A DNA stretch of 64,000 nt, from assembly GCA_964291675.2 (NCBI GenBank), contig OZ219865.1, positions 448,001-512,000 of the forward strand, in the 5' to 3' direction. Positions 25,515-52,650 of the stretch are shown here, in pieces; position 1 is the first letter of the stretch, and the number at the start of each line of letters is the position of its first letter. Below the pieces are notes generated by a model, which was given only the letters and a program-made list of their open reading frames with translations, was not told the DNA's origin and did no database searches. Source of the stretch: Alphaproteobacteria bacterium. GTDB taxonomy: Bacteria > Pseudomonadota > Alphaproteobacteria > MPNO01. The position numbers and the translations under genes were made by a program.

Positions 25515-25990
25515 TCCGCGGCTTCGAAGGTGCCGGACCGGCCGCCCGCCTTGCGGACCAGCCGGATTTCGCCGATCGCCATCGCCCGGTCCACCGCCTT
25601 GCACATGTCGTAGACGGTCAGCGCCGCCACACTGACCGCCGTCAGCGCCTCCATCTCCACCCCGGTGCGTCCGGCGAGCCGGCAGGTGGCCTCGATCTCG
25701 ACCGCGGAGCGCTGCTCGTCGCAGCGCAAATCCACGTCGATCGCGGTCAGCGCCAGCGGGTGGCAGAGCGGGATGAGCTCGGACGTCCGCTTCGCCGCCA
25801 TGATCCCGGCGAGGCGGGCGACGCTCAGCACGTCGCCCTTGGCGACGACGCCGGCGGCGACCCTGCGCAGCGTGTCGGGCGCCATCGAGACCGAGCCCCT
25901 TGCGGTCGCCATGCGTCGGGTCACGTCCTTGTCCGAGACGTCCACCATGACCGCCTTGCCCTCGGCGTCGATATGGCTGAATTCGGCCAT
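25511..25990 (-). CDS. moaC: Cyclic pyranopterin monophosphate synthase
   Basis: [22 protein letters not shown]. Confidence 0.98.
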
Positions 25991-25994
25991 CCCG

Positions 25995-26795
25995 TCAGGC
26001 CGCCTTGCGGCGCAGCAGCGCCGCGGTCGCGGCGCGGACGTCGGGCTGGCTCATCAGCGCCTCGCCGATCAGGAAGCTGGTCACCCCGACGGCCTCCATG
26101 GAGGCGAGGTCGTCCGGGCTGGAGAGGCCGCTCTCTCCCACCACCAGCCGGTCGCGGGGCACCAGCGGGGCCAGCCTGCGGGTGGTCGCGATGTCGGTCT
26201 CCAGCGTCTTCAGGTTGCGGTTGTTGATGCCGATCGGCCCGTCGCCGATCGGGAGGGCGCGTTCCAGCTCGGGCTCGTCATGCACCTCGATCAGAACGTC
26301 CATCGCGAGCTCCCCGGCCAGCGCCGCAAGCTCCCCGGCGAGCGCGTCCTCCAGCGCCGCCATGATCAGCAGAACGCAGTCCGCGCCGATCGCGCGCGCC
26401 TCGGCGATCTGGTAGGGATCGAGCATGAAATCCTTGCGCAGCACCGGCAGCCCGACCGCCGCGCGGGCCGTCGACAGGTGCCCGTCGTCGCCCTGGAAAT
26501 AGGGCGGATCGGTCAGCACCGACAGGCAGGTCGCGCCTCCGGCCTCGTAGTCGCGGGCGAGCTCGGCCGGATCGAAATCCTTGCGAATCAGGCCTTTGCT
26601 CGGCGATGCTCGCTTGATTTCCGCGATCAGCCCGTAATCTCCCCGCGCCCGCGCGTGCCGGAGCCGGGCCGCGAAACCGCGCGGCGGCGCGGCTGCCGCG
26701 GCCTCGTCGAGCACGGCGTTCATCGACCGGCGCCGTTTGCAGGCAGCGACATGCTCCCGCTTGACCGTGCAGATCTCCCGCAGCACGTCGCTCAT
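25995..26795 (-). CDS. trpC: Indole-3-glycerol phosphate synthase
   Basis: [25 protein letters not shown]. Confidence 0.97.
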
Positions 26796-27832
26796 CGCGA
26801 CTCGTCGCCCCGGTTCGAGATCTCGACCATCCGGGCGAGCGCGCCGCGCGCCTTGCCCTCGTCGATCGAGCGCGCCGCGAGCGCCGCGCCCTCGGCCAGG
26901 TCGGCGGCCACACCGGCCACCACCAGCGAACCCGCCGCCGTCATGATGGCGCTGTCGCGATAGGTGCCGGGCTTGCCGTCGAGCAGGGCGCGGAGCCGCT
27001 CGGCGTTGTAGGTCCCGGTGCCGCCCTTGAGGTCCTCGATCCGGCCCTCGGAGAGGCCGGCATCGGCGGCGGTGACGGTGAAGCTGCGCACCGCTCCGTC
27101 CGACCATTCGGCCACCGTCGTCTCCCCGGCGGAGGTGAGCTCGTCGAGCCCGCCCGCGCCATGGACCACCCAGGCCCGCTCGGAACCCAGGCGGCCCAGC
27201 ACCTCGGCCAGCGGTTCGACCCACTCCCCGGCGAACACGCCGACCAGCAGCCGGCGCACGAAGGCCGGGTTGGAGAGCGGGCCGAGCAGGTTGAAGATGG
27301 TGCGTACGGCGAGCTCCACCCTCGGCCCGGCGACATGCCGGGTGGCGCTGTGATGCCGCGGCGCCATCATGAAACCGATCCCGGCCTCGCGGATGGATTC
27401 CTCGATCAGCGGGAACGCGGCGTCGATATTGACCCCGAGCGCGGTCAACACGTCCGCCGCCCCGGCCCGCGACGACAGCGCGCGGTTGCCGTGCTTGGCG
27501 ACCGGTATGCCGCAGCCGGCCACCACCAGCGCGGCGGCGGTGGATATGTTGAGCGTGCCCGCGCCGTCGCCGCCGGTGCCGACCACGTCGACCGCGTTGT
27601 CCGGCGCGCCGATCCGCGCCGCCTTGGCGCGCATGGTCCGTGCCGCCCCGGTGATCTCGTCCACCGTCTCGCCGCGCAGCCTGAGGGCCATCAGGAACGC
27701 GCCGATCTGCGCCGGCGTGGCGTTGCCGGTCATGATGGTATCGAACGCGCGCTCGGCCTCCCCTTCGCTGAGGCGATGCCCGTCCGCGACCCGGCCCAAC
27801 ACGCTCTTGAAAGCGTCGAAATCTTCACTCAT
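26792..27832 (-). CDS. trpD: Anthranilate phosphoribosyltransferase
   Basis: GTGGDG..NIST, KHGNR. Confidence 0.97.
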   Translation of the reverse strand: MSEDFDAFKSVLGRVADGHRLSEGEAERAFDTIMTGNATPAQIGAFLMALRLRGETVDEITGAARTMRAKAARIGAPDNAVDVVGTGGDGAGTLNISTAAALVVAGCGIPVAKHGNRALSSRAGAADVLTALGVNIDAAFPLIEESIREAGIGFMMAPRHHSATRHVAGPRVELAVRTIFNLLGPLSNPAFVRRLLVGVFAGEWVEPLAEVLGRLGSERAWVVHGAGGLDELTSAGETTVAEWSDGAVRSFTVTAADAGLSEGRIEDLKGGTGTYNAERLRALLDGKPGTYRDSAIMTAAGSLVVAGVAADLAEGAALAARSIDEGKARGALARMVEISNRGDESR

Positions 27833-41726: not shown

Positions 41727-42209
41727 ATGCCGAGCCACGCCGAGCGCCGCTACGCCGCCTACGCGCCGGCCCAGATCTTCGAGCTGGTGGCCGATGTCGA
41801 GAGCTACCCGGACTTTTTGCCCTGGTGCACCGGTTGCCGGATATACAGCCGCGAGGACAACGTGCTGTACGCCAGGCTCGGAGTCGGCTTCAAGATGGTG
41901 AGCGAGAGCTTCAGGTCGCGGGTGACGCTGGACCCGATCGAACGCATCGACATCGCCTATCTCGACGGCCCGTTCCGCTATCTCGACAGTAGCTGGAAAT
42001 TCGGCCCGAAGGACGACGGCTGCCTGATCGACTTCTACATCGATTTCGAGTTCCGCTCGCTGCTGCTGCGCAAGATCATGGGACCGCTGTTCAACGAGGT
42101 GGTCCGGCGCAGCGTCGGCGCCTTCATCGCCCGCGCGGATGCGCTGTACGGCCCCGCGAGGGCAGGGGGCGCACTCGCTCGCCGGGCCGTCCGCGCAGCT
42201 CAGAAATAG
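41727..42209 (+). CDS. Coq10/RatA-family START domain protein
   Basis: LVADVESYPDFLPWC, GPFRYL, AFIARA; typical position after lipA. Confidence 0.9.
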   Translation: MPSHAERRYAAYAPAQIFELVADVESYPDFLPWCTGCRIYSREDNVLYARLGVGFKMVSESFRSRVTLDPIERIDIAYLDGPFRYLDSSWKFGPKDDGCLIDFYIDFEFRSLLLRKIMGPLFNEVVRRSVGAFIARADALYGPARAGGALARRAVRAAQK

Positions 42210-43003
42210 ATCCGGCCCTCGATCCGTTCGACCGGATCGCGTGCCGCCAGGCGCAGCCGGGGCAGGTTGGCGGCCGCGATCGCCGCCAGCACCGCGTCGA
42301 GAGCGTCGCCGCCCCGGTCGTCGACAATGCGAATCCAAACCGATTTATCGGGCCCGTTCAATAAACCATTGTTTATCAAGGTATCCACGAGCTTTGCCCT
42401 GGAGTCTCGCAAGCCCTGGCCGGGTCCCTTGTAGGAGAAGTAGAGACCGAGCCGCTTGAGCAAAGAGGCCGGGCAGGTCTCGGCGAGCAGCACCTTGCCG
42501 GGCGCGGGGGCTTGCATCGGGACAACCCGTGCCGCGCCGGTCTCTACCAGCGGCAGGAGCACGCTCCCGATCCCGGCATGGGTCTGACGGAACAGCCTCA
42601 GATTGTAGGCGGAGAACGGTACCTTCGCCTCGACATCGGTGCATCGCTTGAACTCGCGCCCGCCGGCGGCGCGCCGGCACTCGGCCCGAAGCGATTGGGC
42701 ATCGGGGTAGCGGGCGGAGAAGCCGCGCAAAAAATCCTCCCAGACCGTCTCCTCGATCAGCGAGCGGGGCAGGCTGAAGGGGAAGTCGAGACCGGCCGCG
42801 GCGCGCCGTTCGCTCGCGAGAAAATCCCTCAGCGCCGCCAGCGCCGTTTCGCGGTCCGGCGCACCGCCGGGCAGCTCCCGCGCCGGCCGGCAGCCTTCCA
42901 GCGTCAGCCGGCCGGCTTGCTGCGTTCCCACCGCGATCCAGATGTGATCCCCGGCACGGCGGGCGCCGGAATAATCGACCCCGATAACGCGCCGACGCGT
43001 CAC
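42200..43003 (-). CDS. DUF429-like predicted RNase H-fold nuclease
   Basis: IGVDYSGA, GLDFPFSLP, KRCTD, ETCPA, DALDAVLAA acidic motifs. Confidence 0.75.
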   Translation of the reverse strand: MTRRRVIGVDYSGARRAGDHIWIAVGTQQAGRLTLEGCRPARELPGGAPDRETALAALRDFLASERRAAAGLDFPFSLPRSLIEETVWEDFLRGFSARYPDAQSLRAECRRAAGGREFKRCTDVEAKVPFSAYNLRLFRQTHAGIGSVLLPLVETGAARVVPMQAPAPGKVLLAETCPASLLKRLGLYFSYKGPGQGLRDSRAKLVDTLINNGLLNGPDKSVWIRIVDDRGGDALDAVLAAIAAANLPRLRLAARDPVERIEGRIYF

Positions 43004-43976: not shown

Positions 43977-45143
43977 TCAGGCGGGGAGGCGGATCGTGGC
44001 GACGGCCTGGGCGGCGATTCCCTCGCCGCGCCCGGTGAAGCCCAGACCCTCGGTCGTCGTCGCCTTGATGCCGATCCGGCCGGGCTCCAGTTCCAGCAGC
44101 CCGGCGACGCGCGCCGCCATCGCGTCCCGATGCGGCGCGATCCTGGGCGCCTCGCAGATCAGCGTGAGGTCGAGATTGACGATGGAGCCGCCGCGGCGGC
44201 GCACCAGGCGGGCGGCGTGGCGCAGGAAGGTGGCCGAGGGTTCGCCCCGCCAGCGCGGGTCGGTGGGCGGAAAATGCAGGCCGATATCGCCTTCGGAAAT
44301 CGCACCGAGCAGCGCATCGGTCAAAGCGTGCATCGCGACATCGGCGTCCGAGTGACCGGCGAGCGCCCGGTCGTGCGGAATCTCGACGCCGCACAGCGTG
44401 ACCGCCTTTCCCTCGCCGAACCTGTGGACATCGAATCCGGTGCCGGTCCTGAGCTCGAAGGGCGCGGCCCCGAGCCAACGCCGCGCACGCTCCAGGTCCT
44501 CCGGCGTCGTCACCTTGATGTTGGAATCGCTGCCCTGCACCAGCGCGACATCGAGGCCCGCGTGCTCCGCCACCGCGGCATCGTCGGTCAGCGCCAGACC
44601 GGCGGCGGCGCGGTGCGCGGCGAGGATCTCCGCGAAGCGGAAGCCCTGCGGCGTCTGCGCGCGCCACAGCCCGCGGCGCTCCACGGTCGCGCCGACGAGC
44701 GGCATATCCACCCCATCCCGTTCGCGCTTGAGGGTGTCGCTGACCGGCACCGCCGGGAGCGCGGCGGGAGAGGTTTCGAGCGCCGCGAGAACCCGCGAGA
44801 TCGTCGCCGCATCGGCGAACGGACGCGCGGCATCGTGGATCAACACCGTCCGCGGCTCGACGGGGGCGAGGCTCTCGAGGCCGAGACGCGCGGAGTCCTG
44901 GCGGGTTTCGCCGCCGGCGACCGGTTCCATGAGGTCGAGGCCGTCGAGCGCCCGGTCGCAGTCCCCGCGGTCGGCGGCGCCGATGACCACGCGCACGCGA
45001 TCGACGGCGGGGTGGTCGACGAAGCCGGAGACGGCATGGCGCAGAACGGCGGCATCGCCGAGCGCCAAATACTGCTTGGGAAGCGCCGCGCCGAGACGCG
45101 TGCCGCGCCCGCCGGCAAGGATCAGGGCGACACACCCCGTCAT
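43977..45143 (-). CDS. ispDF: Bifunctional IspD/IspF
   Basis: AGGRGTR, IHDAARP, QTPQGF; GFDVH, GHSDADV, KATTTE. Confidence 0.97.
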
Positions 45144-45274
45144 ATCGCACCCGTGCGGTTGTCGTCAAAAGCCTAGTCGGCCGGGAATCGATTGCCAAGC
45201 GCCGCGCTCCGCTTCGCGCTGTTCGCATGCATCGAGGGTGTTATAGTCCTGCTCCCGCCGTGGATTGTGGTGCG

Positions 45275-46276
45275 ATGCCCTCCCTGGCTCCGCTAAAGAT
45301 CGGTCCTGTCGAAATCCGGGAGCCCGTGTTCCTGGCGCCGATGTCGGGGGTCAGCGACCTGCCGTTCCGTCGCCTGGTCAAGAGCTGGGGGGCGGGGATG
45401 GTGTTTTCCGAGATGATCGCGGACGGGGCGATGCTGCGGCAGGTACCCGGGTCGCTGAAGGTCGCGACCGACTGCGCCGAGGAGTTTCCCATGGCGGTCC
45501 AGCTCGTCGGCCACGATCCTGCCACCATGGCGGAGGCGGCGCGCATGGCCGCCGACCGCGGTGCGGCGGTGGTCGACATCAACATGGGCTGCCCGGTCAA
45601 GAAGGTTGTCAAGAAGATGTGCGGCTCGGCCCTGATGCGCGATGAGCCCCATGCCGCGCGAATCGTGCGCGCCGTCGCGGGCGCGGTGGACCTGCCGGTC
45701 ACGCTCAAGATGCGCATGGGCTGGGACGACGATCACCTCAACGCCCCGCGGCTCGCCGCCATCGCAGAGGATTGCGGCGCCAGGATGATCACCGTCCACG
45801 GCCGCACGCGGACCCAGCTCTATACCGGGCAGGCGAACTGGCGCTTCGTCGCCAGGGTGAAGGCCGCGGTCTCGATCCCGGTGGTGGTGAACGGCGACAT
45901 CACGACGCTCGATGAAGCCGCCGCCGCCCTCCGGGAATCGAATGCCGACGGCGTGATGATCGGCCGCGGCGCCTGCGGCAGGCCGTGGTTCCCGCGCCAG
46001 GTCATGGCCTATCTGCGCACCGGGTCGCGGGAACCCGATCCCGACCCGGCGCGGAAATGCGCCGCGATTCGCGTCCATTTCGACGCCATGATCCGGCATT
46101 ACGGCCCGGTCACCGGGGTACGGATGGCGCGCAAGCATCTCGGCTGGTACGCCAGGTCCGAGCGCGGCGGGGCGGCGTTCCGCGCGTCGGTCAACGCCAT
46201 CGCCGACCCGGACGAGGTCCGCTCGGCGATCGTGCGCTTCTTCGGGGAGGCCGGCGGCGGCGCCATCGCGGCATGA
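45275..46276 (+). CDS. dusB: tRNA dihydrouridine synthase DusB (NifR3)
   Basis: [23 protein letters not shown]. Confidence 0.96.
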
Positions 46277-46875
46277 GCCCACCGGTCATCGTGCTGGCAA
46301 GCTCGGACGGCGAAGTCCTCCGGCTCTTCGACGAAGCCGGGTTTGCCCTTCTCTTCGCGCCCACCGCGGCGGCGTTCCGCCATGTCCTGGTCTCCGGCGC
46401 CGGCGACGCCGCGGCGGTCGATTCCGCCATGCTGTCGAGCGCCGGCGCGAACATGGCGGAAGCGATGGCGGCATCGCGGCCGGAAATGCCGCTTGTCGTG
46501 CTCGGCGGCGCCGCGCCGACGGGGCTTTCCGTTCGCACCAGCCATGTCGCGCGCCCGCGCAACCGGGAGAGCCTGCTGGCTACGGTCGAACGGGCGCTGG
46601 AAGGCGCGCAGGCCTCGCAGCCGAGCGAGCGGGACAGCTTGTCGCGTGCGGTGGAGACGCATCTGGTTCGGTATTTCGAGGCCCACGCCCCGGAACTCCC
46701 GGGCCCGGGCCTGCACCGCCGGGTATTGCGCGAGGTCGAGCGGTCGCTGATCGCGCTCGCCCTTGACGCGACACGGGGCAACCAGCTGCAGGCCGCGGCC
46801 TTGCTGGGGCTCAACCGCAACACGCTCAGGAAGAAAATCCGCGATCTCGACATCTCGGCTGAGCGGAGCATATGA
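46273..46875 (+). CDS. NtrC-derived protein: degenerate receiver domain plus Fis-type HTH, no AAA+ domain
   Basis: C-terminus [52 protein letters not shown] matches the alphaproteobacterial NtrC DNA-binding domain; N-terminus has REC-like topology; ATGA overlap with dusB. Confidence 0.85.
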
Positions 46876-46933
46876 TGGCCTTTCTCGCGGCAGGCTGAGC
46901 CCGCGCGCGAGCGGGTGACCGATTCGGCAAGAG

Positions 46934-49150
46934 ATGGCGAATAGAACGGCGGCACTGCGCACACCCGGGGCCGCCCGGCTCTCTTGGTGGGCACGCCGGC
47001 ACCGGCTGGGGCGCAAATCGGCGGTCGTGCTCGCGGTGATGTCGCTGGTCTCCGCCCTTGCGACCTACGCGGCGCTCTCCGGTTCGCTTCCTTTCGCCAG
47101 CGACCCGCGCGCCCTGCTTCTGCTGCTCAATGTCGATCTGGTGCTGTTCCTCGCGCTCGGCGCCATCGTCGCCCGGCGCCTCGTGCGGATCTGGATCGCT
47201 CGCCGACGCGGCTCCGTCGGCGCCAGGCTGCACGGCCGGCTGGTCCTCTGGTTCAGCGTGATCGCCGGGGTTCCGGCGATCGCGGTCTCCGTCTTCTCGG
47301 CATGGTTCTTCAGCCTCGGCGTCCAGGCCTGGTTCAGCGACCGCGTCCAGACCGCGCTCCAGGAGGCCTCGATCGTCGCGGAGTCCTATTTGCGCGAGCA
47401 TCAGAAGGTGATCCGGGGCGACATCCTCGCCATCGCGCGCGACATCAACCGGTCGGCGCCGCAGCTCTGGGTCGATCCGGCGCGGTTCAACCAGATGATG
47501 GCGGCGCAGGGCGTGCTGCGGAACCTGAGCGAGGCCTACGTGTTCGACAGCGGGGGGCGGGTGATCGCCCGCTGGAACCTCAGCTTCGTCCTCGACCGCG
47601 ACCCCATACCGGTCGCCGCGCTGGCGAAGGTGGAGCGGGGCGAGCTGGTGGTGCTCGCCAGCGGGTCGGAAGACCGGATGCGGGCAATCGTCAAGCTGGA
47701 CGGGGCGATAAACGCGTTTCTCTATATCAGCCGGTTCGTCGAGCCCCGCGTGCTCGACCACATCGCCCGCACCAGGCAGGCGGTGGCCGAGTACCAGTCC
47801 CTCGAAGGGCGGCGACAGACCTTCGAGATCACCTTCGCGACGATGTTCGTGCTGGGAGCGCTGCTGCTTCTGATGGCCGCGATCTGGGCCGGGGTGGTTT
47901 TCGCGTCCCGTCTGGCCGGTCCGGTGACCGCGCTTGCCGCGGCGGCCGAACGCGTGCGCGGCGGCGACCTGTCCACCCGGGTCCAGGAGACCGGGGAGGG
48001 CGACGAGATCGGCTCCCTGATCCGGGCGTTCAATCGGATGGCCGGCCAGCTTGAGACGCAGCGGGACGAGCTGCTGGAGGCGAACCGTCAGCTCGATACG
48101 CGGCGCCACTTCATCGAAACCGTGTTCTCCGGGGTATCCGCCGGCGTGGTGGGGCTGGATCGCGCGGGCAATGTCAACGTCTCGAACCGGCTGGCCTCCG
48201 AGCTGTTGTTCCACGATCTCGACCGATCGATGGGCCGGCCTCTGGCGCCGCTCGCGCCGGGAATGGGCGCGCTGCTCGCCGAGGCGCGAAGCCGCCCGGA
48301 CAGGGCGGCCGAAACGGAGATCGAGCTCAAGCACGGCGACGGAACCAGGACGCTGTTCGTGCGCGTCGTGGCCGATCTCCGGGACGAGGCGATCGTCGGC
48401 TTCGTGGTCACCTTCAACGACATCACCGAGCTGCTCGCCGCACAGCGCAAGGCCGCCTGGTCCGACGTTGCGCGGCGCATCGCCCACGAGATCAAGAACC
48501 CGCTGACGCCGATCCAGCTTTCCGCGGAACGGCTGCGGCGCAAATATCTCGGCGAGATAAGCAGCGACCCCAAATCCTTCGACGACTACACCGAGACCAT
48601 CATCCGGCATGTCGGGGATATCGGCCGGATGGTCGACGAGTTCTCCGATTTCGCGCGCATGCCGAACGCCGTCATCGCGCCCGTCGACATCGCCGATCTC
48701 TGCCGGGTCGAGCTTGCCCTGTACCGCGAAGCGCATCCGCAGATCGCGTTCGAGGCCGCGCTGCCGGACGAGCCGCTGGTCGTGGCGTGCGATGCCGGTC
48801 TGACGGCACGCGCGCTTTCCAACCTCCTCAAGAACGCCGTCGAGGCAATCCAGAGCCGCGGGCGCGACGCCGGGCCCGGCCGCATCGCGGTCGGCGTCGA
48901 GGACGGCGACGGATTCGCCGAGATTTCGGTGGAGGACAACGGCCGCGGGCTGCCGGATATGGCCGCGCATCGCCTCACCGAGCCCTATGTCACGACGCGG
49001 GACAAAGGCACCGGTCTCGGCCTGGCGATCGTCAGGAAAATCATGGAAGACCACAACGGCGAGGTGGCGCTGGAGGCGGCTCCCGACGGCGGCGCCCGGG
49101 TCCGTTTGGTCTTCCCAAAGAACGGGCAGGGTGTCACTGTGACGCGATGA
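46934..49150 (+). CDS. ntrY: Sensor histidine kinase NtrY
   Basis: TMs, HAMP, PAS, AWSDVARRIAHEIKNPLTPI, GTGLGL. Confidence 0.95.
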   Translation: MANRTAALRTPGAARLSWWARRHRLGRKSAVVLAVMSLVSALATYAALSGSLPFASDPRALLLLLNVDLVLFLALGAIVARRLVRIWIARRRGSVGARLHGRLVLWFSVIAGVPAIAVSVFSAWFFSLGVQAWFSDRVQTALQEASIVAESYLREHQKVIRGDILAIARDINRSAPQLWVDPARFNQMMAAQGVLRNLSEAYVFDSGGRVIARWNLSFVLDRDPIPVAALAKVERGELVVLASGSEDRMRAIVKLDGAINAFLYISRFVEPRVLDHIARTRQAVAEYQSLEGRRQTFEITFATMFVLGALLLLMAAIWAGVVFASRLAGPVTALAAAAERVRGGDLSTRVQETGEGDEIGSLIRAFNRMAGQLETQRDELLEANRQLDTRRHFIETVFSGVSAGVVGLDRAGNVNVSNRLASELLFHDLDRSMGRPLAPLAPGMGALLAEARSRPDRAAETEIELKHGDGTRTLFVRVVADLRDEAIVGFVVTFNDITELLAAQRKAAWSDVARRIAHEIKNPLTPIQLSAERLRRKYLGEISSDPKSFDDYTETIIRHVGDIGRMVDEFSDFARMPNAVIAPVDIADLCRVELALYREAHPQIAFEAALPDEPLVVACDAGLTARALSNLLKNAVEAIQSRGRDAGPGRIAVGVEDGDGFAEISVEDNGRGLPDMAAHRLTEPYVTTRDKGTGLGLAIVRKIMEDHNGEVALEAAPDGGARVRLVFPKNGQGVTVTR

Positions 49151-49157
49151 GAATGGC

Positions 49158-50558
49158 GTGGAGAGCGTAGCGTTGCAGGCCGAGGTGCTCATCGTCGACG
49201 ACGAGGCCGATATTCGTCGCATCACCGCCGATTTCCTCGAGGACGAGGGCTATCGCTGTCGTTCGGCCGCCGACACCGTCTCGGCGCTCGAAATGATCGA
49301 GGAACGGCGCCCCCATCTGGTGGTCCTCGACATCTGGCTGCGCGGCGACGACCGCGACGGACTCCAGTTTCTGAAGCTGCTGAACGAGCGGCATCCGCAT
49401 ATCCCGATCGTGATGATCAGCGGTCACGGCACCGTCGAGACAGCGGTGAAGGCGATCAAGCTCGGCGCGTACGACTTCGTGGAGAAGCCGTTCAAGTCCG
49501 ACCGGCTGGCGCTCACGGTCAGGCGGGCGATGGACGCCGCGCGGCTCCGCCAGGAGAACGCGGAGCTGCGGGAACGGGCGAACGCCGACTGGACCATGAT
49601 CGGCAACTCGCAGTCGATCTGCCAGCTCCGCAGCGCGATCGACCGGGTTGCGCCGACCGGCAGCCGGGTGATGATCAGCGGCCCGCCCGGCTCCGGCAAG
49701 GAGGTCGCGGCCCGCTCGCTGCATGGGCGTTCGCAACGCCGGGACCGCTCCTTCACGGTGCTCAACTGCGCGACGATGGCTCCCGAGCGCATGGAAGAGG
49801 AGCTGTTCGGCCTGGAAGCCGCGAACGGCGGCGCGCCCCATCTGGGTACTTTCGAGCAGGCGAATGGCGGGACCCTGCTGCTCGACGAGGTCGCCGACAT
49901 GCCGCTGGAGACCCAGGGCAAGATCGTCCGCGTTCTCCAGGAGCAGTCCTTTGCCCGCACCGGAGGCACCGCCAGGATCACCGTCGACGTCAGGGTCATC
50001 GCCACCACCAGCCGCAACCTTCACAGCGAGATGGCGGCCGGCCGGTTCCGTCAGGACCTCTACTACCGGCTGAACGTGGTGCCCATCGAGGTGCCCTCGC
50101 TGACCGCGCGCCGCGACGATATCCCGCTCCTGTTCAGCCATTTCGCCGAGCGCGCCGCGGCGGCGAGCGGCATGCCCTGCCGCGTTCTCGCCGAGGACGC
50201 CCTGGCGGCGCTGCAGGCCTATGACTGGCCCGGCAATGTGCGCCAGCTGCGCAATGTCGCCGAGTGGATCCTGATCATGGCGCCCGGAAACGGCCAGGAT
50301 CTGGTGCGCCCCGACATGCTGCCGCCGGATATCGTCGCCGACACGCCGGAGCCGCTGCGCTGGGACAGGAGCGGCGAGGCTCTGGGCCTGCCGCTGCGCG
50401 AGGCGCGCGAACGGTTCGAACGGGAGTATCTGATCGCCCAGGTCGACCGGTTCGGCGGCAACGTGTCGCGCACCGCCCAGTTCGTGGGGATGGAACGCTC
50501 CGCCCTGCATCGCAAGCTCAAGACGCTGGGCGTGGCGCCGGCGGGCAGGTCGGACTAG
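49158..50558 (+). CDS. ntrX: Response regulator NtrX
   Basis: REC (LDIWL), AAA+ GPPGSGKE lacking GAFTGA, HTH MERSALHRKLK; follows ntrY. Confidence 0.95.
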   Translation: MESVALQAEVLIVDDEADIRRITADFLEDEGYRCRSAADTVSALEMIEERRPHLVVLDIWLRGDDRDGLQFLKLLNERHPHIPIVMISGHGTVETAVKAIKLGAYDFVEKPFKSDRLALTVRRAMDAARLRQENAELRERANADWTMIGNSQSICQLRSAIDRVAPTGSRVMISGPPGSGKEVAARSLHGRSQRRDRSFTVLNCATMAPERMEEELFGLEAANGGAPHLGTFEQANGGTLLLDEVADMPLETQGKIVRVLQEQSFARTGGTARITVDVRVIATTSRNLHSEMAAGRFRQDLYYRLNVVPIEVPSLTARRDDIPLLFSHFAERAAAASGMPCRVLAEDALAALQAYDWPGNVRQLRNVAEWILIMAPGNGQDLVRPDMLPPDIVADTPEPLRWDRSGEALGLPLREARERFEREYLIAQVDRFGGNVSRTAQFVGMERSALHRKLKTLGVAPAGRSD

Positions 50559-51990: not shown

Positions 51991-52650
51991 GTGAACGCGG
52001 TCGACCGCTTGCCGCGCGCCGTGGTCTTCGACTGGGACAACACCCTGGTCGATACCTGGCCGGTGATCCACGAATCGATGAACGCCGCTCTCGCGGCGAT
52101 GGGCCACCCGGCCTGGTCGGTCGAGGACACCCGCGAGAGGGTGCGGCGGTCGCTGCGCGAGGCCTTTCCGCCGCTGTTCGGCGAGCGCTGGCAGGAGGCG
52201 CGCGACATCTTCTATCGCCGCTTCGACGCGATCCACCTCGAACGGCTCGCGATCTGCGATGGCGCCGAGGCGCTGATCGCGGCGCTCGCCGGGCGCGGCA
52301 TCCCGCTCTGCGTGGTCAGCAACAAGGTGGGCGGGACTCTGCGCCGCGAAGCCGGGCATCTCGGCTGGGAACGGTATTTTTCCCGCCTGGTCGGAGCGAG
52401 CGACGCGGAGCGCGACAAGCCGGCAACCGAGCCGGTCGACCTTGCGCTGTCCGACGCCGGGGTTCGACGCGACGCCGATGTCTGGTTCGTCGGCGATACC
52501 TGGGTCGACATGGAGTGCGCCCACAACGCCGGGTGCACCGCGATCCTGGTGCGCAAGACGCCGCCCCGGGAGGGCGAGTTCGCGGCGTTCCCGCCGCAGG
52601 CCCATTTCGCCGACTGCGCCGGCCTCCAAAGGCATGTCGAGAGCCTGTGA
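51991..52650 (+). CDS. HAD-family phosphatase (phosphoglycolate phosphatase-like)
   Basis: FDWDNTLVD, SNK, DKP, VGDTWVD. Confidence 0.9.
   Translation: MNAVDRLPRAVVFDWDNTLVDTWPVIHESMNAALAAMGHPAWSVEDTRERVRRSLREAFPPLFGERWQEARDIFYRRFDAIHLERLAICDGAEALIAALAGRGIPLCVVSNKVGGTLRREAGHLGWERYFSRLVGASDAERDKPATEPVDLALSDAGVRRDADVWFVGDTWVDMECAHNAGCTAILVRKTPPREGEFAAFPPQAHFADCAGLQRHVESL

Follow-up and report, generated by a model that had tools for sequence, protein, structure and literature searches.

A 200-residue NtrC derivative without an AAA+ module, encoded between dusB and ntrY in Defluviicoccus and related Alphaproteobacteria

The DNA analysed here, which we refer to as the window, is a 64,000-nucleotide stretch of an alphaproteobacterial genome (contig OZ219865.1, positions 448,001 to 512,000), and its subject is a 200-amino-acid open reading frame (ORF) on the + strand at 46273-46875. 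We call this ORF mini-NtrC, and residue numbers below refer to its protein. We think it fairly probable that mini-NtrC is a derivative of NtrC that is functional and specific to one clade (Defluviicoccus and closely related alphaproteobacterial metagenome-assembled genomes), and that it acts as a sigma54-independent, dimeric DNA-binding regulator whose receiver has been remodelled and still functions. As judged by pairwise and profile alignments, both halves of the protein are shown to derive from NtrC. The architecture is settled across the whole clade and is neither recent nor transitional, and purifying selection acts on both domains.

The locus is laid out as follows.

45275..46276, + strand: dusB (nifR3), tRNA dihydrouridine synthase B (Dus in Pfam, 1.5e-94; TIGR00737 in NCBIfam, 384.5 bits, cut-off 293.3)
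46273..46875, + strand: mini-NtrC ORF, 200 codons, with its ATG at 46273
46273..46276, + strand: ATGA overlap of the dusB stop TGA (46274-46276) with the mini-NtrC ATG, the same in 10 of 10 sequences (window and nine related loci)
46934..49150, + strand: ntrY, sensor histidine kinase (Pfam NtrY_N, 9.4e-45, with HAMP, HisKA and HATPase_c)
49158..50558, + strand: ntrX, response regulator with REC, AAA+ and HTH_8 (NtrX equivalog of NCBIfam, 678.4 bits, cut-off 600; Pfam Response_reg, Sigma54_activat at 1.1e-51, and HTH_8)

As dusB directly overlaps the mini-NtrC ORF, with no gene between them, there is no room for ntrB, and the initial annotation was right in both coordinates and anatomy when it described dusB, a 200-residue ORF joined to it by ATGA, and then ntrY and ntrX without an intervening ntrB. 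Among 44 window ORFs scanned by Pfam (the four of the locus and 40 others, chosen mainly by codon-position GC from 52 candidates of the 64-kb window), none is ntrB, ntrC or rpoN.

Searches of domain libraries locate what is present in mini-NtrC and what is missing from it. HTH_8, a helix-turn-helix (HTH) family, is the sole family-level Pfam match (residues 152-190, 4.1e-13), and neither Sigma54_activat nor Response_reg matches the protein even at E<=1. A search of 46273-46875 had been predicted to return HTH_8 and a weak receiver (REC) match and no Sigma54_activat; the first and last of these hold, but the weak REC match is not seen in the window protein, and Response_reg appears at E<=0.01 in 11 of the 24 family members aligned (see below). 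Residues 108-192 align to positions 380-463 of the 463-position NCBIfam ntrC model (1.4e-17), with the 63.6 bits of the ntrC equivalog falling below its cut-off of 558.6. Similarly, residues 112-194 align to positions 16-97 of the NCBIfam Fis model (1.6e-13), at 51.2 bits and below the cut-off of 99.

Comparison with a full-length NtrC (P0176) by BLASTP yields two collinear segments. The first joins mini-NtrC residues 5-112 to P0176 residues 4-121 (23% identity, 8e-7) and the second joins residues 104-200 to 379-478 (61% identity, 6e-34), leaving approximately 257 NtrC residues (about 122 to 378, the AAA+ module) with no counterpart in mini-NtrC. Aligned by hhalign against 12 full-length alphaproteobacterial NtrC proteins (picked from 120 among the matches listed, named ones favoured), the family profile is 60% identical over residues 103-200, with an E-value of 7.3e-38. 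The protein can thus be divided into three parts, in which omega is the ratio of nonsynonymous to synonymous substitution rates (dN/dS) and pLDDT is the predicted local distance difference test score.

46273..46611, + strand: N-domain, residues 1-113, with an NtrC-derived, REC-like fold lacking helix alpha4 (AlphaFold2 (AF2), Foldseek, hhalign; omega 0.175)
46612..46635, + strand: variable linker, residues 114-121, where the AAA+ module is missing (pLDDT below 50 at residues 115-120; omega 0.29)
46636..46875, + strand: C-domain, residues 122-200 plus the stop codon, a four-helix dimerisation and HTH region of NtrC/Fis type (hhalign, HTH_8, Fis structures, omega 0.048)

Pfam, NCBIfam, synteny, hhalign and BLASTP together uphold the architecture first proposed for this ORF, namely a receiver-like domain joined to an NtrC/Fis-type dimerisation and HTH region, in the ancestral ntr slot and with the AAA+ domain and ntrB gone.

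This arrangement is not peculiar to the window. A search of 5.8 billion proteins finds 23 clusters of 196-201 amino acids with 57-94% identity over the full length; the remaining matches listed are NtrC fragments, or full-length NtrC aligned by the C-domain only. In a 24-sequence alignment of the family the mean pairwise identity is 87% for the C-half and 61% for the N-half, falling to 46% over residues 101-120. HTH_8 is found in 24/24 members. Scanning 185,579 species genomes with the N-domain alignment identifies nine loci, four labelled Defluviicoccus sp. and five "Alphaproteobacteria bacterium"; three of the nine are at chromosome level. The ten-gene order ispDF / dusB-mini-ntrY-ntrX-trkA-HAD-hfq-hflX is the same as that of the window in 9/9 loci, none of which has ntrB between dusB and the ORF, and an intact ORF of 200 or 201 codons is present in all ten sequences (window and nine loci). 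Where the neighbouring proteins are 73.5-92% identical to those of the window, mini-NtrC is 59-62% identical. The median pairwise synonymous divergence (dS) among the mini-NtrC loci is about 0.8, and a form kept clade-wide at such divergence does not fit the suggestion that a Fis-like protein is here "in the making".

Two longer proteins that came up as possible variants are rejected. P0029 (336 amino acids) is a gene call for an NtrC that is either truncated or frameshifted, and P0148 (534 amino acids, a cluster mate of P0017), which appeared to be a fused form, joins a frameshifted dusB to the mini-NtrC frame in one metagenome and probably reflects a sequencing or assembly frameshift.

The collection of orthologues in related genomes, as the initial annotation had proposed, allows dN/dS to be estimated domain by domain. 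We used the codon model GY+F3X4 on a fixed tree from five neighbouring genes with 10 sequences, and give twice the log-likelihood difference (2dlnL) from a model with omega = 1.

N-domain, codons 1-100: omega 0.175, 2dlnL 186
Linker: omega 0.293, 2dlnL 19.7
C-domain: omega 0.048, 2dlnL 298
DusB: omega 0.089, 2dlnL 913.6
NtrY: omega 0.073, 2dlnL 2257.3
NtrX: omega 0.061, 2dlnL 1408.2
TrkA: omega 0.032, 2dlnL 1732.4
HAD: omega 0.112, 2dlnL 465.0
HflX: omega 0.085, 2dlnL 1162.7

Pairwise Nei-Gojobori (NG86) ratios, calculated for all 45 pairs (43 of 45 for the linker), fall in the same order (N-domain 0.34, linker 0.54, C-domain 0.10, neighbours 0.085-0.195). Measured against the neighbouring genes, the N-domain is thus some two to five times more relaxed, yet it is clearly constrained, which rules out a decaying remnant. 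The view that an eroded REC domain sits beside an HTH with selection on DNA binding only has to be abandoned, given the N-domain values above and four N-domain residues (D12, D50, G78 and P95) that are invariant in 24/24 family members.

Structural comparisons indicate what kind of domain is being maintained. The AF2 model, made with the 24-row alignment, has a pLDDT of 74 and a predicted template modelling score (pTM) of 0.52, and in the N-domain its strands (E) and helices (H) run in the order E5-9 H13-22 E25-28 H32-41 E46-50 H51-68 E74-77 E89-92 H98-113, giving five strands and four helices, with a loop in place of helix alpha4. The best Foldseek matches in the PDB are response regulators (StyR, 9.4e-6, and FixJ), and single REC domains superimpose with TM scores of 0.72-0.74 and root-mean-square deviations of 2.8-3.2. 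By hhalign, the N-terminal 120 residues of the 24 sequences match the REC domain of alphaproteobacterial NtrC along the full length (probability 97.9%, E 4.4e-13, score 77.7), whereas the N-half against the REC domain of its own NtrX reaches a probability of 37.9% and a score of 28.4. Against sequences of solved structures the N-profile has the NtrC receiver 1dc7 as its best match (E 0.0016), tied with an RpfC receiver.

The profile alignment to NtrC also places the receiver signature residues. S10, S11 and D12 lie at the acidic DDD triplet, D50 (in AVDSAM) at the acceptor Asp, G78 at the conserved Ser/Thr and R94-P95 at the Lys-Pro pair, and there is a six-residue gap in helix alpha4. These are the readings given initially (SSD, an acceptor Asp kept in AVDSAM, G for S/T and RP for KP), and the profile-profile alignment to alphaproteobacterial NtrC confirms them. 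The five-residue signature is thus incomplete, with three of five residues replaced and D12 and D50 kept. Across the 24 members, S, A or L stands in place of the central Asp of the triplet. At the position equivalent to Lys, 12 members have R, 10 have L, one has Q and one has P. Just 13 positions among the first 100 of the alignment never vary. The invariance of D12 and D50 points to a retained acidic pocket, and the missing Ser/Thr, Lys and alpha4 speak against a classical switch. A search of 1.84 billion representatives with the N-domain profile gave no receiver subfamily of origin: a single match falls below 1e-30 (the mini-NtrC family itself), the next stands at 4.9e-15, and there are 1122 at E<=0.001. 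From 150 of these 1122 we picked 14 by rank and length, and 14/14 contain Response_reg, most being multi-REC proteins with summed scores.

The recognition helix of the C-domain differs very little from the one in alphaproteobacterial NtrC, and among solved structures Fis is the closest to the C-half (Fis residues 16-94, with an E-value of about 1e-12). The predicted homodimer scores 0.44 against 0.00 for the best control, a mark that is reached by 20/30 proteins solved as pairs and by 1/23 solved as single chains. Contacts agree by at least 67% between runs, the partner pLDDT is at least 70, and all confident contacts lie within residues 120-180. Fis and the NtrC DNA-binding domain are known as dimers from solved structures, and the homodimer pass may mirror likeness to these dimers and is no independent proof.

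The explanation we favour for these observations is that ntrB was lost entirely and that about 257 residues of ntrC, with the whole sigma54-activating AAA+ module, were removed in frame, leaving a product made of the NtrC receiver, a short variable linker and the NtrC C-terminal dimerisation and HTH domain. Mini-NtrC would be made together with DusB by termination-reinitiation at the ATGA, and would dimerise through C-domain helices A and B, in the manner of Fis and of the NtrC DNA-binding domain. It may bind NtrC-type sites, which are likely targets because the recognition helix is almost that of alphaproteobacterial NtrC. With no ATPase the sigma54 holoenzyme cannot be remodelled, and with no sigma54 activation the protein would have to act by occupancy, bending or contact with the sigma70 holoenzyme. 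We therefore envisage that mini-NtrC represses, shapes DNA as an architectural factor or co-regulates in the sigma70 manner, its probable targets being the promoters of nitrogen assimilation and its own operon, with the receiver-like domain most likely serving as a regulatory or protein-contact module rather than as a classical NtrB-driven phospho-switch.

In Caulobacter, NtrC represses its own operon, binds a motif that resembles the Fis motif, and has 37 of its 51 sites overlapping those of a nucleoid protein (10.1101/2023.06.06.543975, in the text accessible to us, as for all points taken from this source). The accessible part of PMC5343134 deals with regulon content and gives no consensus for the alphaproteobacterial NtrC site.

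Several points weigh against the explanation we favour. The structural model is of medium confidence only (pTM 0.52). The origin of the N-half from NtrC rests on collinearity, synteny and the hhalign contrast, and outside the family the N-profile comes closest to generic multi-REC proteins rather than to NtrC. The invariant D12 and D50 fit a retained metal- or phosphoryl-binding site equally as well as a structural role. The sequence read comprises the 64-kb window and 20-kb flanks, and full-length ntrBC elsewhere in the genome would alter the role of mini-NtrC, for example to that of an NtrC antagonist. Finally, an engineered Caulobacter NtrC with the AAA+ domain deleted fails to support growth on ammonium (10.1101/2023.06.06.543975), from which it follows that an AAA+-less protein is not a working NtrC.

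The strongest competitor takes up the acidic residues and holds that mini-NtrC still accepts phosphate, with NtrY or an orphan kinase phosphorylating D50 and so controlling DNA binding, in which case ntrB would have been replaced and not simply lost. We give this a low but appreciable probability, because D12 and D50 are kept in every member of a family that varies at most of its first 100 positions, purifying selection acts on the N-domain, the gene lies directly 5' of ntrY in 10/10 sequences, and Pfam still recognises Response_reg in 11 of the 24 members. These points have to be set against the replacement of the middle Asp by S, A or L, of the Ser/Thr by Gly in 24/24, and of the Lys by R, L, Q or P. 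In addition, alpha4 is absent from the model and the alignment is six residues shorter there; this helix forms part of the receiver surface that changes on phosphorylation.

A second competitor, to which we give a rather low probability, is that mini-NtrC works as a nucleoid-associated protein in the manner of Fis. It would then be abundant, would follow the growth phase by way of the dusB promoter, and would bind and bend DNA with little specificity. Mini-NtrC occupies the operon position of fis, downstream of dusB; Fis is both the best solved match of its C-domain and a match by NCBIfam; and the resemblance of the Caulobacter NtrC motif to that of Fis and the overlap of NtrC and nucleoid-protein sites noted above (10.1101/2023.06.06.543975) point the same way. 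However, the score of 51 bits is far from the Fis cut-off of 99, a receiver-like domain of 113 residues stands in place of a short beta-hairpin arm, and the NtrC recognition helix argues for specific sites.

Improbable to a greater degree is the proposal that mini-NtrC antagonises a full-length NtrC encoded elsewhere, by competing for sites or by forming inactive heterodimers through the C-domain. The C-domain, where the predicted dimer interface lies, shares 60% identity with NtrC, and the authors of the Caulobacter study suspect that truncated NtrC alleles may be dominant negative (10.1101/2023.06.06.543975), but 0 of the 44 scanned window ORFs are ntrB or ntrC, and the occupied ancestral ntrBC slot suggests replacement and not duplication. 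That the ORF results from assembly collapse, or is a neutral remnant or a pseudogene left by a recent deletion, outcomes that the initial annotation had named as fatal to its proposal, can practically be discarded: we find nothing in its favour, although linker and N-domain do evolve faster than neighbouring genes, and the ORF is intact in 10/10 sequences, including three complete-chromosome records, forms 23 clusters, has omega far below 1 throughout, and has an in-frame GC content at third codon positions (GC3) of 0.85, similar to that of neighbouring genes.

How, then, does the AAA+-less regulator we propose relate to known systems? To NtrC (GlnG), a group I bacterial enhancer-binding protein, it is homologous and collinear in both halves, with a near-identical recognition helix, and it is found in the canonical dusB-ntr-ntrY-ntrX-trkA-hfq-hflX neighbourhood. 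It differs in having no AAA+ module (approximately 257 residues) and no adjacent ntrB, and in the three signature residues and alpha4. As the AAA+ domain is absent, mini-NtrC is not a member of NtrC.

With Fis it shares a four-helix core with a C-terminal HTH and a gene situated directly 3' of dusB. Fis, however, is about 98 residues long where mini-NtrC has 200, and carries an N-terminal beta-hairpin arm, which activates invertases, where mini-NtrC has a receiver-like domain; mini-NtrC, moreover, arose in an alphaproteobacterial lineage and falls below the Fis cut-off (51 bits against 99). Being under the cut-off, twice as long and without the beta-hairpin arm, it is not a member of Fis. Response regulators that combine REC and HTH_8 without AAA+ are of the RegA/PrrA/ActR type, and these are like mini-NtrC in two-domain architecture and size. 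However, mini-NtrC has the long four-helix NtrC/Fis form of the C-domain, 60% identical to NtrC, and has lost receiver signature residues. That form and that identity argue for an origin independent of the RegA/PrrA/ActR type, and no family of this type is among the 17 NCBIfam matches of the scan.

The initial annotation drew a parallel with the proposed origin of dusB-fis by reduction of nifR3-ntrBC to dusB and the NtrC C-domain (PMC2831072, as far as its accessible text goes, and a reference entry in the accessible part of PMC7482072), and the parallel is apt. Other alphaproteobacterial relatives of NtrC have also ceased to work through sigma54: the NtrC of Rhodobacter capsulatus and that of Caulobacter work at sigma70 promoters and have no GAFTGA loop (10.1101/2023.06.06.543975). 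The AAA+ domain is retained in these unconventional NtrC/NtrX proteins, which depend on binding or hydrolysing ATP, whereas mini-NtrC is without AAA+ altogether. Loss of ntrBC in the Alphaproteobacteria is already known, as Asticcacaulis and Brevundimonas are without ntrC at the ntr locus; the accessible text of the same paper does not mention a remnant consisting of a receiver and a DNA-binding domain there (10.1101/2023.06.06.543975). Among the papers listed by a search on truncated NtrC, judged by titles and abstracts, we find no description of a natural AAA+-less NtrC at the ntr locus, and in the library searched no paper mentions Defluviicoccus together with NtrC.

We now turn to the expression signals of the operon. 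The longest dusB ORF opens at 45227 and exceeds the one from the conserved start (45275) by 48 nt, but the extension is not conserved, and in one relative (L002) it contains an in-frame stop within the segment equivalent to 45227-45274. For these two reasons we take 45275 as the start of dusB, in agreement with the start given initially. Two promoter-like elements lie in this part of the window.

45239..45247 (hexamer 45242-45247), + strand: TATAGT, a -10-like element preceded by TG two bases upstream (TG-n-TATAGT, extended -10), in the ispDF/dusB intergenic region and conserved in a 7-sequence alignment
46847..46876, + strand: sigma70-like promoter match TCGACA-18-TATGAT, in the last mini-NtrC codons and 5' of ntrY (consensus scan, 1 found against 0.1 expected)

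The 7-sequence alignment consists of the window and six of the nine loci, three loci having been dropped as the start-motif search missed them. The TATAGT element is a candidate promoter of the dusB/mini-ntrC operon; the consensus promoter scan did not flag the element at 45242-45247. The match at 46847-46876 overlaps invariant codons, and its conservation is inseparable from coding constraint. A terminator scan of 44900-47100 gave no sites, and none between the mini-NtrC ORF and ntrY. The arrangement suggests co-transcription of dusB and the mini-NtrC ORF. The nearest purine-rich stretch lies approximately 24 nt 5' of the mini-NtrC start and is too distant to suit as a ribosome-binding site; translation of mini-NtrC probably depends on ribosomes ending at the dusB TGA.

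The ispDF/dusB intergenic region (45144-45274) contains several further blocks that are conserved in the seven aligned sequences. One of them is a 10-bp palindrome directly beside the ispDF start, and an 8-bp palindrome, absent from L001 and L002, is situated approximately 60 bp further on; each is a possible operator site. In one relative only (L007), an ORF with a DDE transposase domain (2.2e-14; L007:7487-8596, - strand) is found between ispDF and dusB. This insertion widens the intergenic region by approximately 1.9 kb and leaves the dusB/mini-ntrC pair untouched.

In the remainder of the neighbourhood, trkA, a HAD-type ORF, hfq and hflX lie 3' of ntrX, and ispDF, pgpA and a CinA-like gene are divergent and 5' of dusB. 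The putative HAD-type ORF (219 amino acids, 51991-52650) is situated between trkA and hfq in 10/10 sequences, its label having been given without a family scan. Two other ORFs match no Pfam family at E<=1e-5. One of these, at 42200-43003 on the - strand, may be a real gene of unknown family, and the other, at 25614-26960 on the + strand, may be spurious, as it is mostly moeA/trpD intergenic with its first ~380 nt antisense to moeA. Rfam gave no matches in a scan of the whole 64-kb window.

A search among proteins of 30-109 amino acids adds a third size class to the comparison between mini-NtrC and full-length NtrC. Most of the matches listed are fragments, but they include complete-looking proteins of 87-92 amino acids that consist of an NtrC-type C-domain only.

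P0421: 91 amino acids, on 4 contigs, the longest 297 kb
P0424: 91 amino acids, on 5 contigs, the longest 583 kb
P0431, P0439 and P0466: stand-alone C-domains within the 87-92 amino acid group

P0017 and P0424 are 75% identical over 81 residues. We built a C-domain tree from the last 84 residues of 24 family members, 11 short proteins and the best 60 of 120 full-length NtrC proteins by rank, with support given as UFBoot/SH-aLRT. In this tree the mini-NtrC family forms one clade (100/93), P0421 and P0424 together are its sister (99/90), and the full-length NtrC P0176 comes next (85/81); the deeper forks, on 84 columns, are weak. It is conceivable, though we hold it doubtful, that Defluviicoccus and a sister lineage keep a stepwise series inside the dusB operon, from full-length NtrC (P0176 being the nearest) through mini-NtrC to a 91-residue DNA-binding domain alone.

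Fis is among the best studied nucleoid proteins. To our knowledge, the proposal that it was born from the NtrC C-terminus in a nifR3-ntrBC operon had no other basis than resemblance between sequences. In the free-living alphaproteobacterial clade described here, a reduction of the Fis type is fixed and under selection in the original locus. If the 91-residue genes also follow dusB, the sister lineage would have reached a Fis-sized protein, and the proposed route would have been taken twice, independently, with an intermediate that is alive and open to study. Defluviicoccus is an abundant glycogen-accumulating organism of wastewater plants. The finding bears on its nitrogen control, as genomes of Defluviicoccus are reported, in the accessible part of PMC9041414, to carry nifHDK, amt and urt, and the classical NtrBC switch is lacking at the ntr locus.

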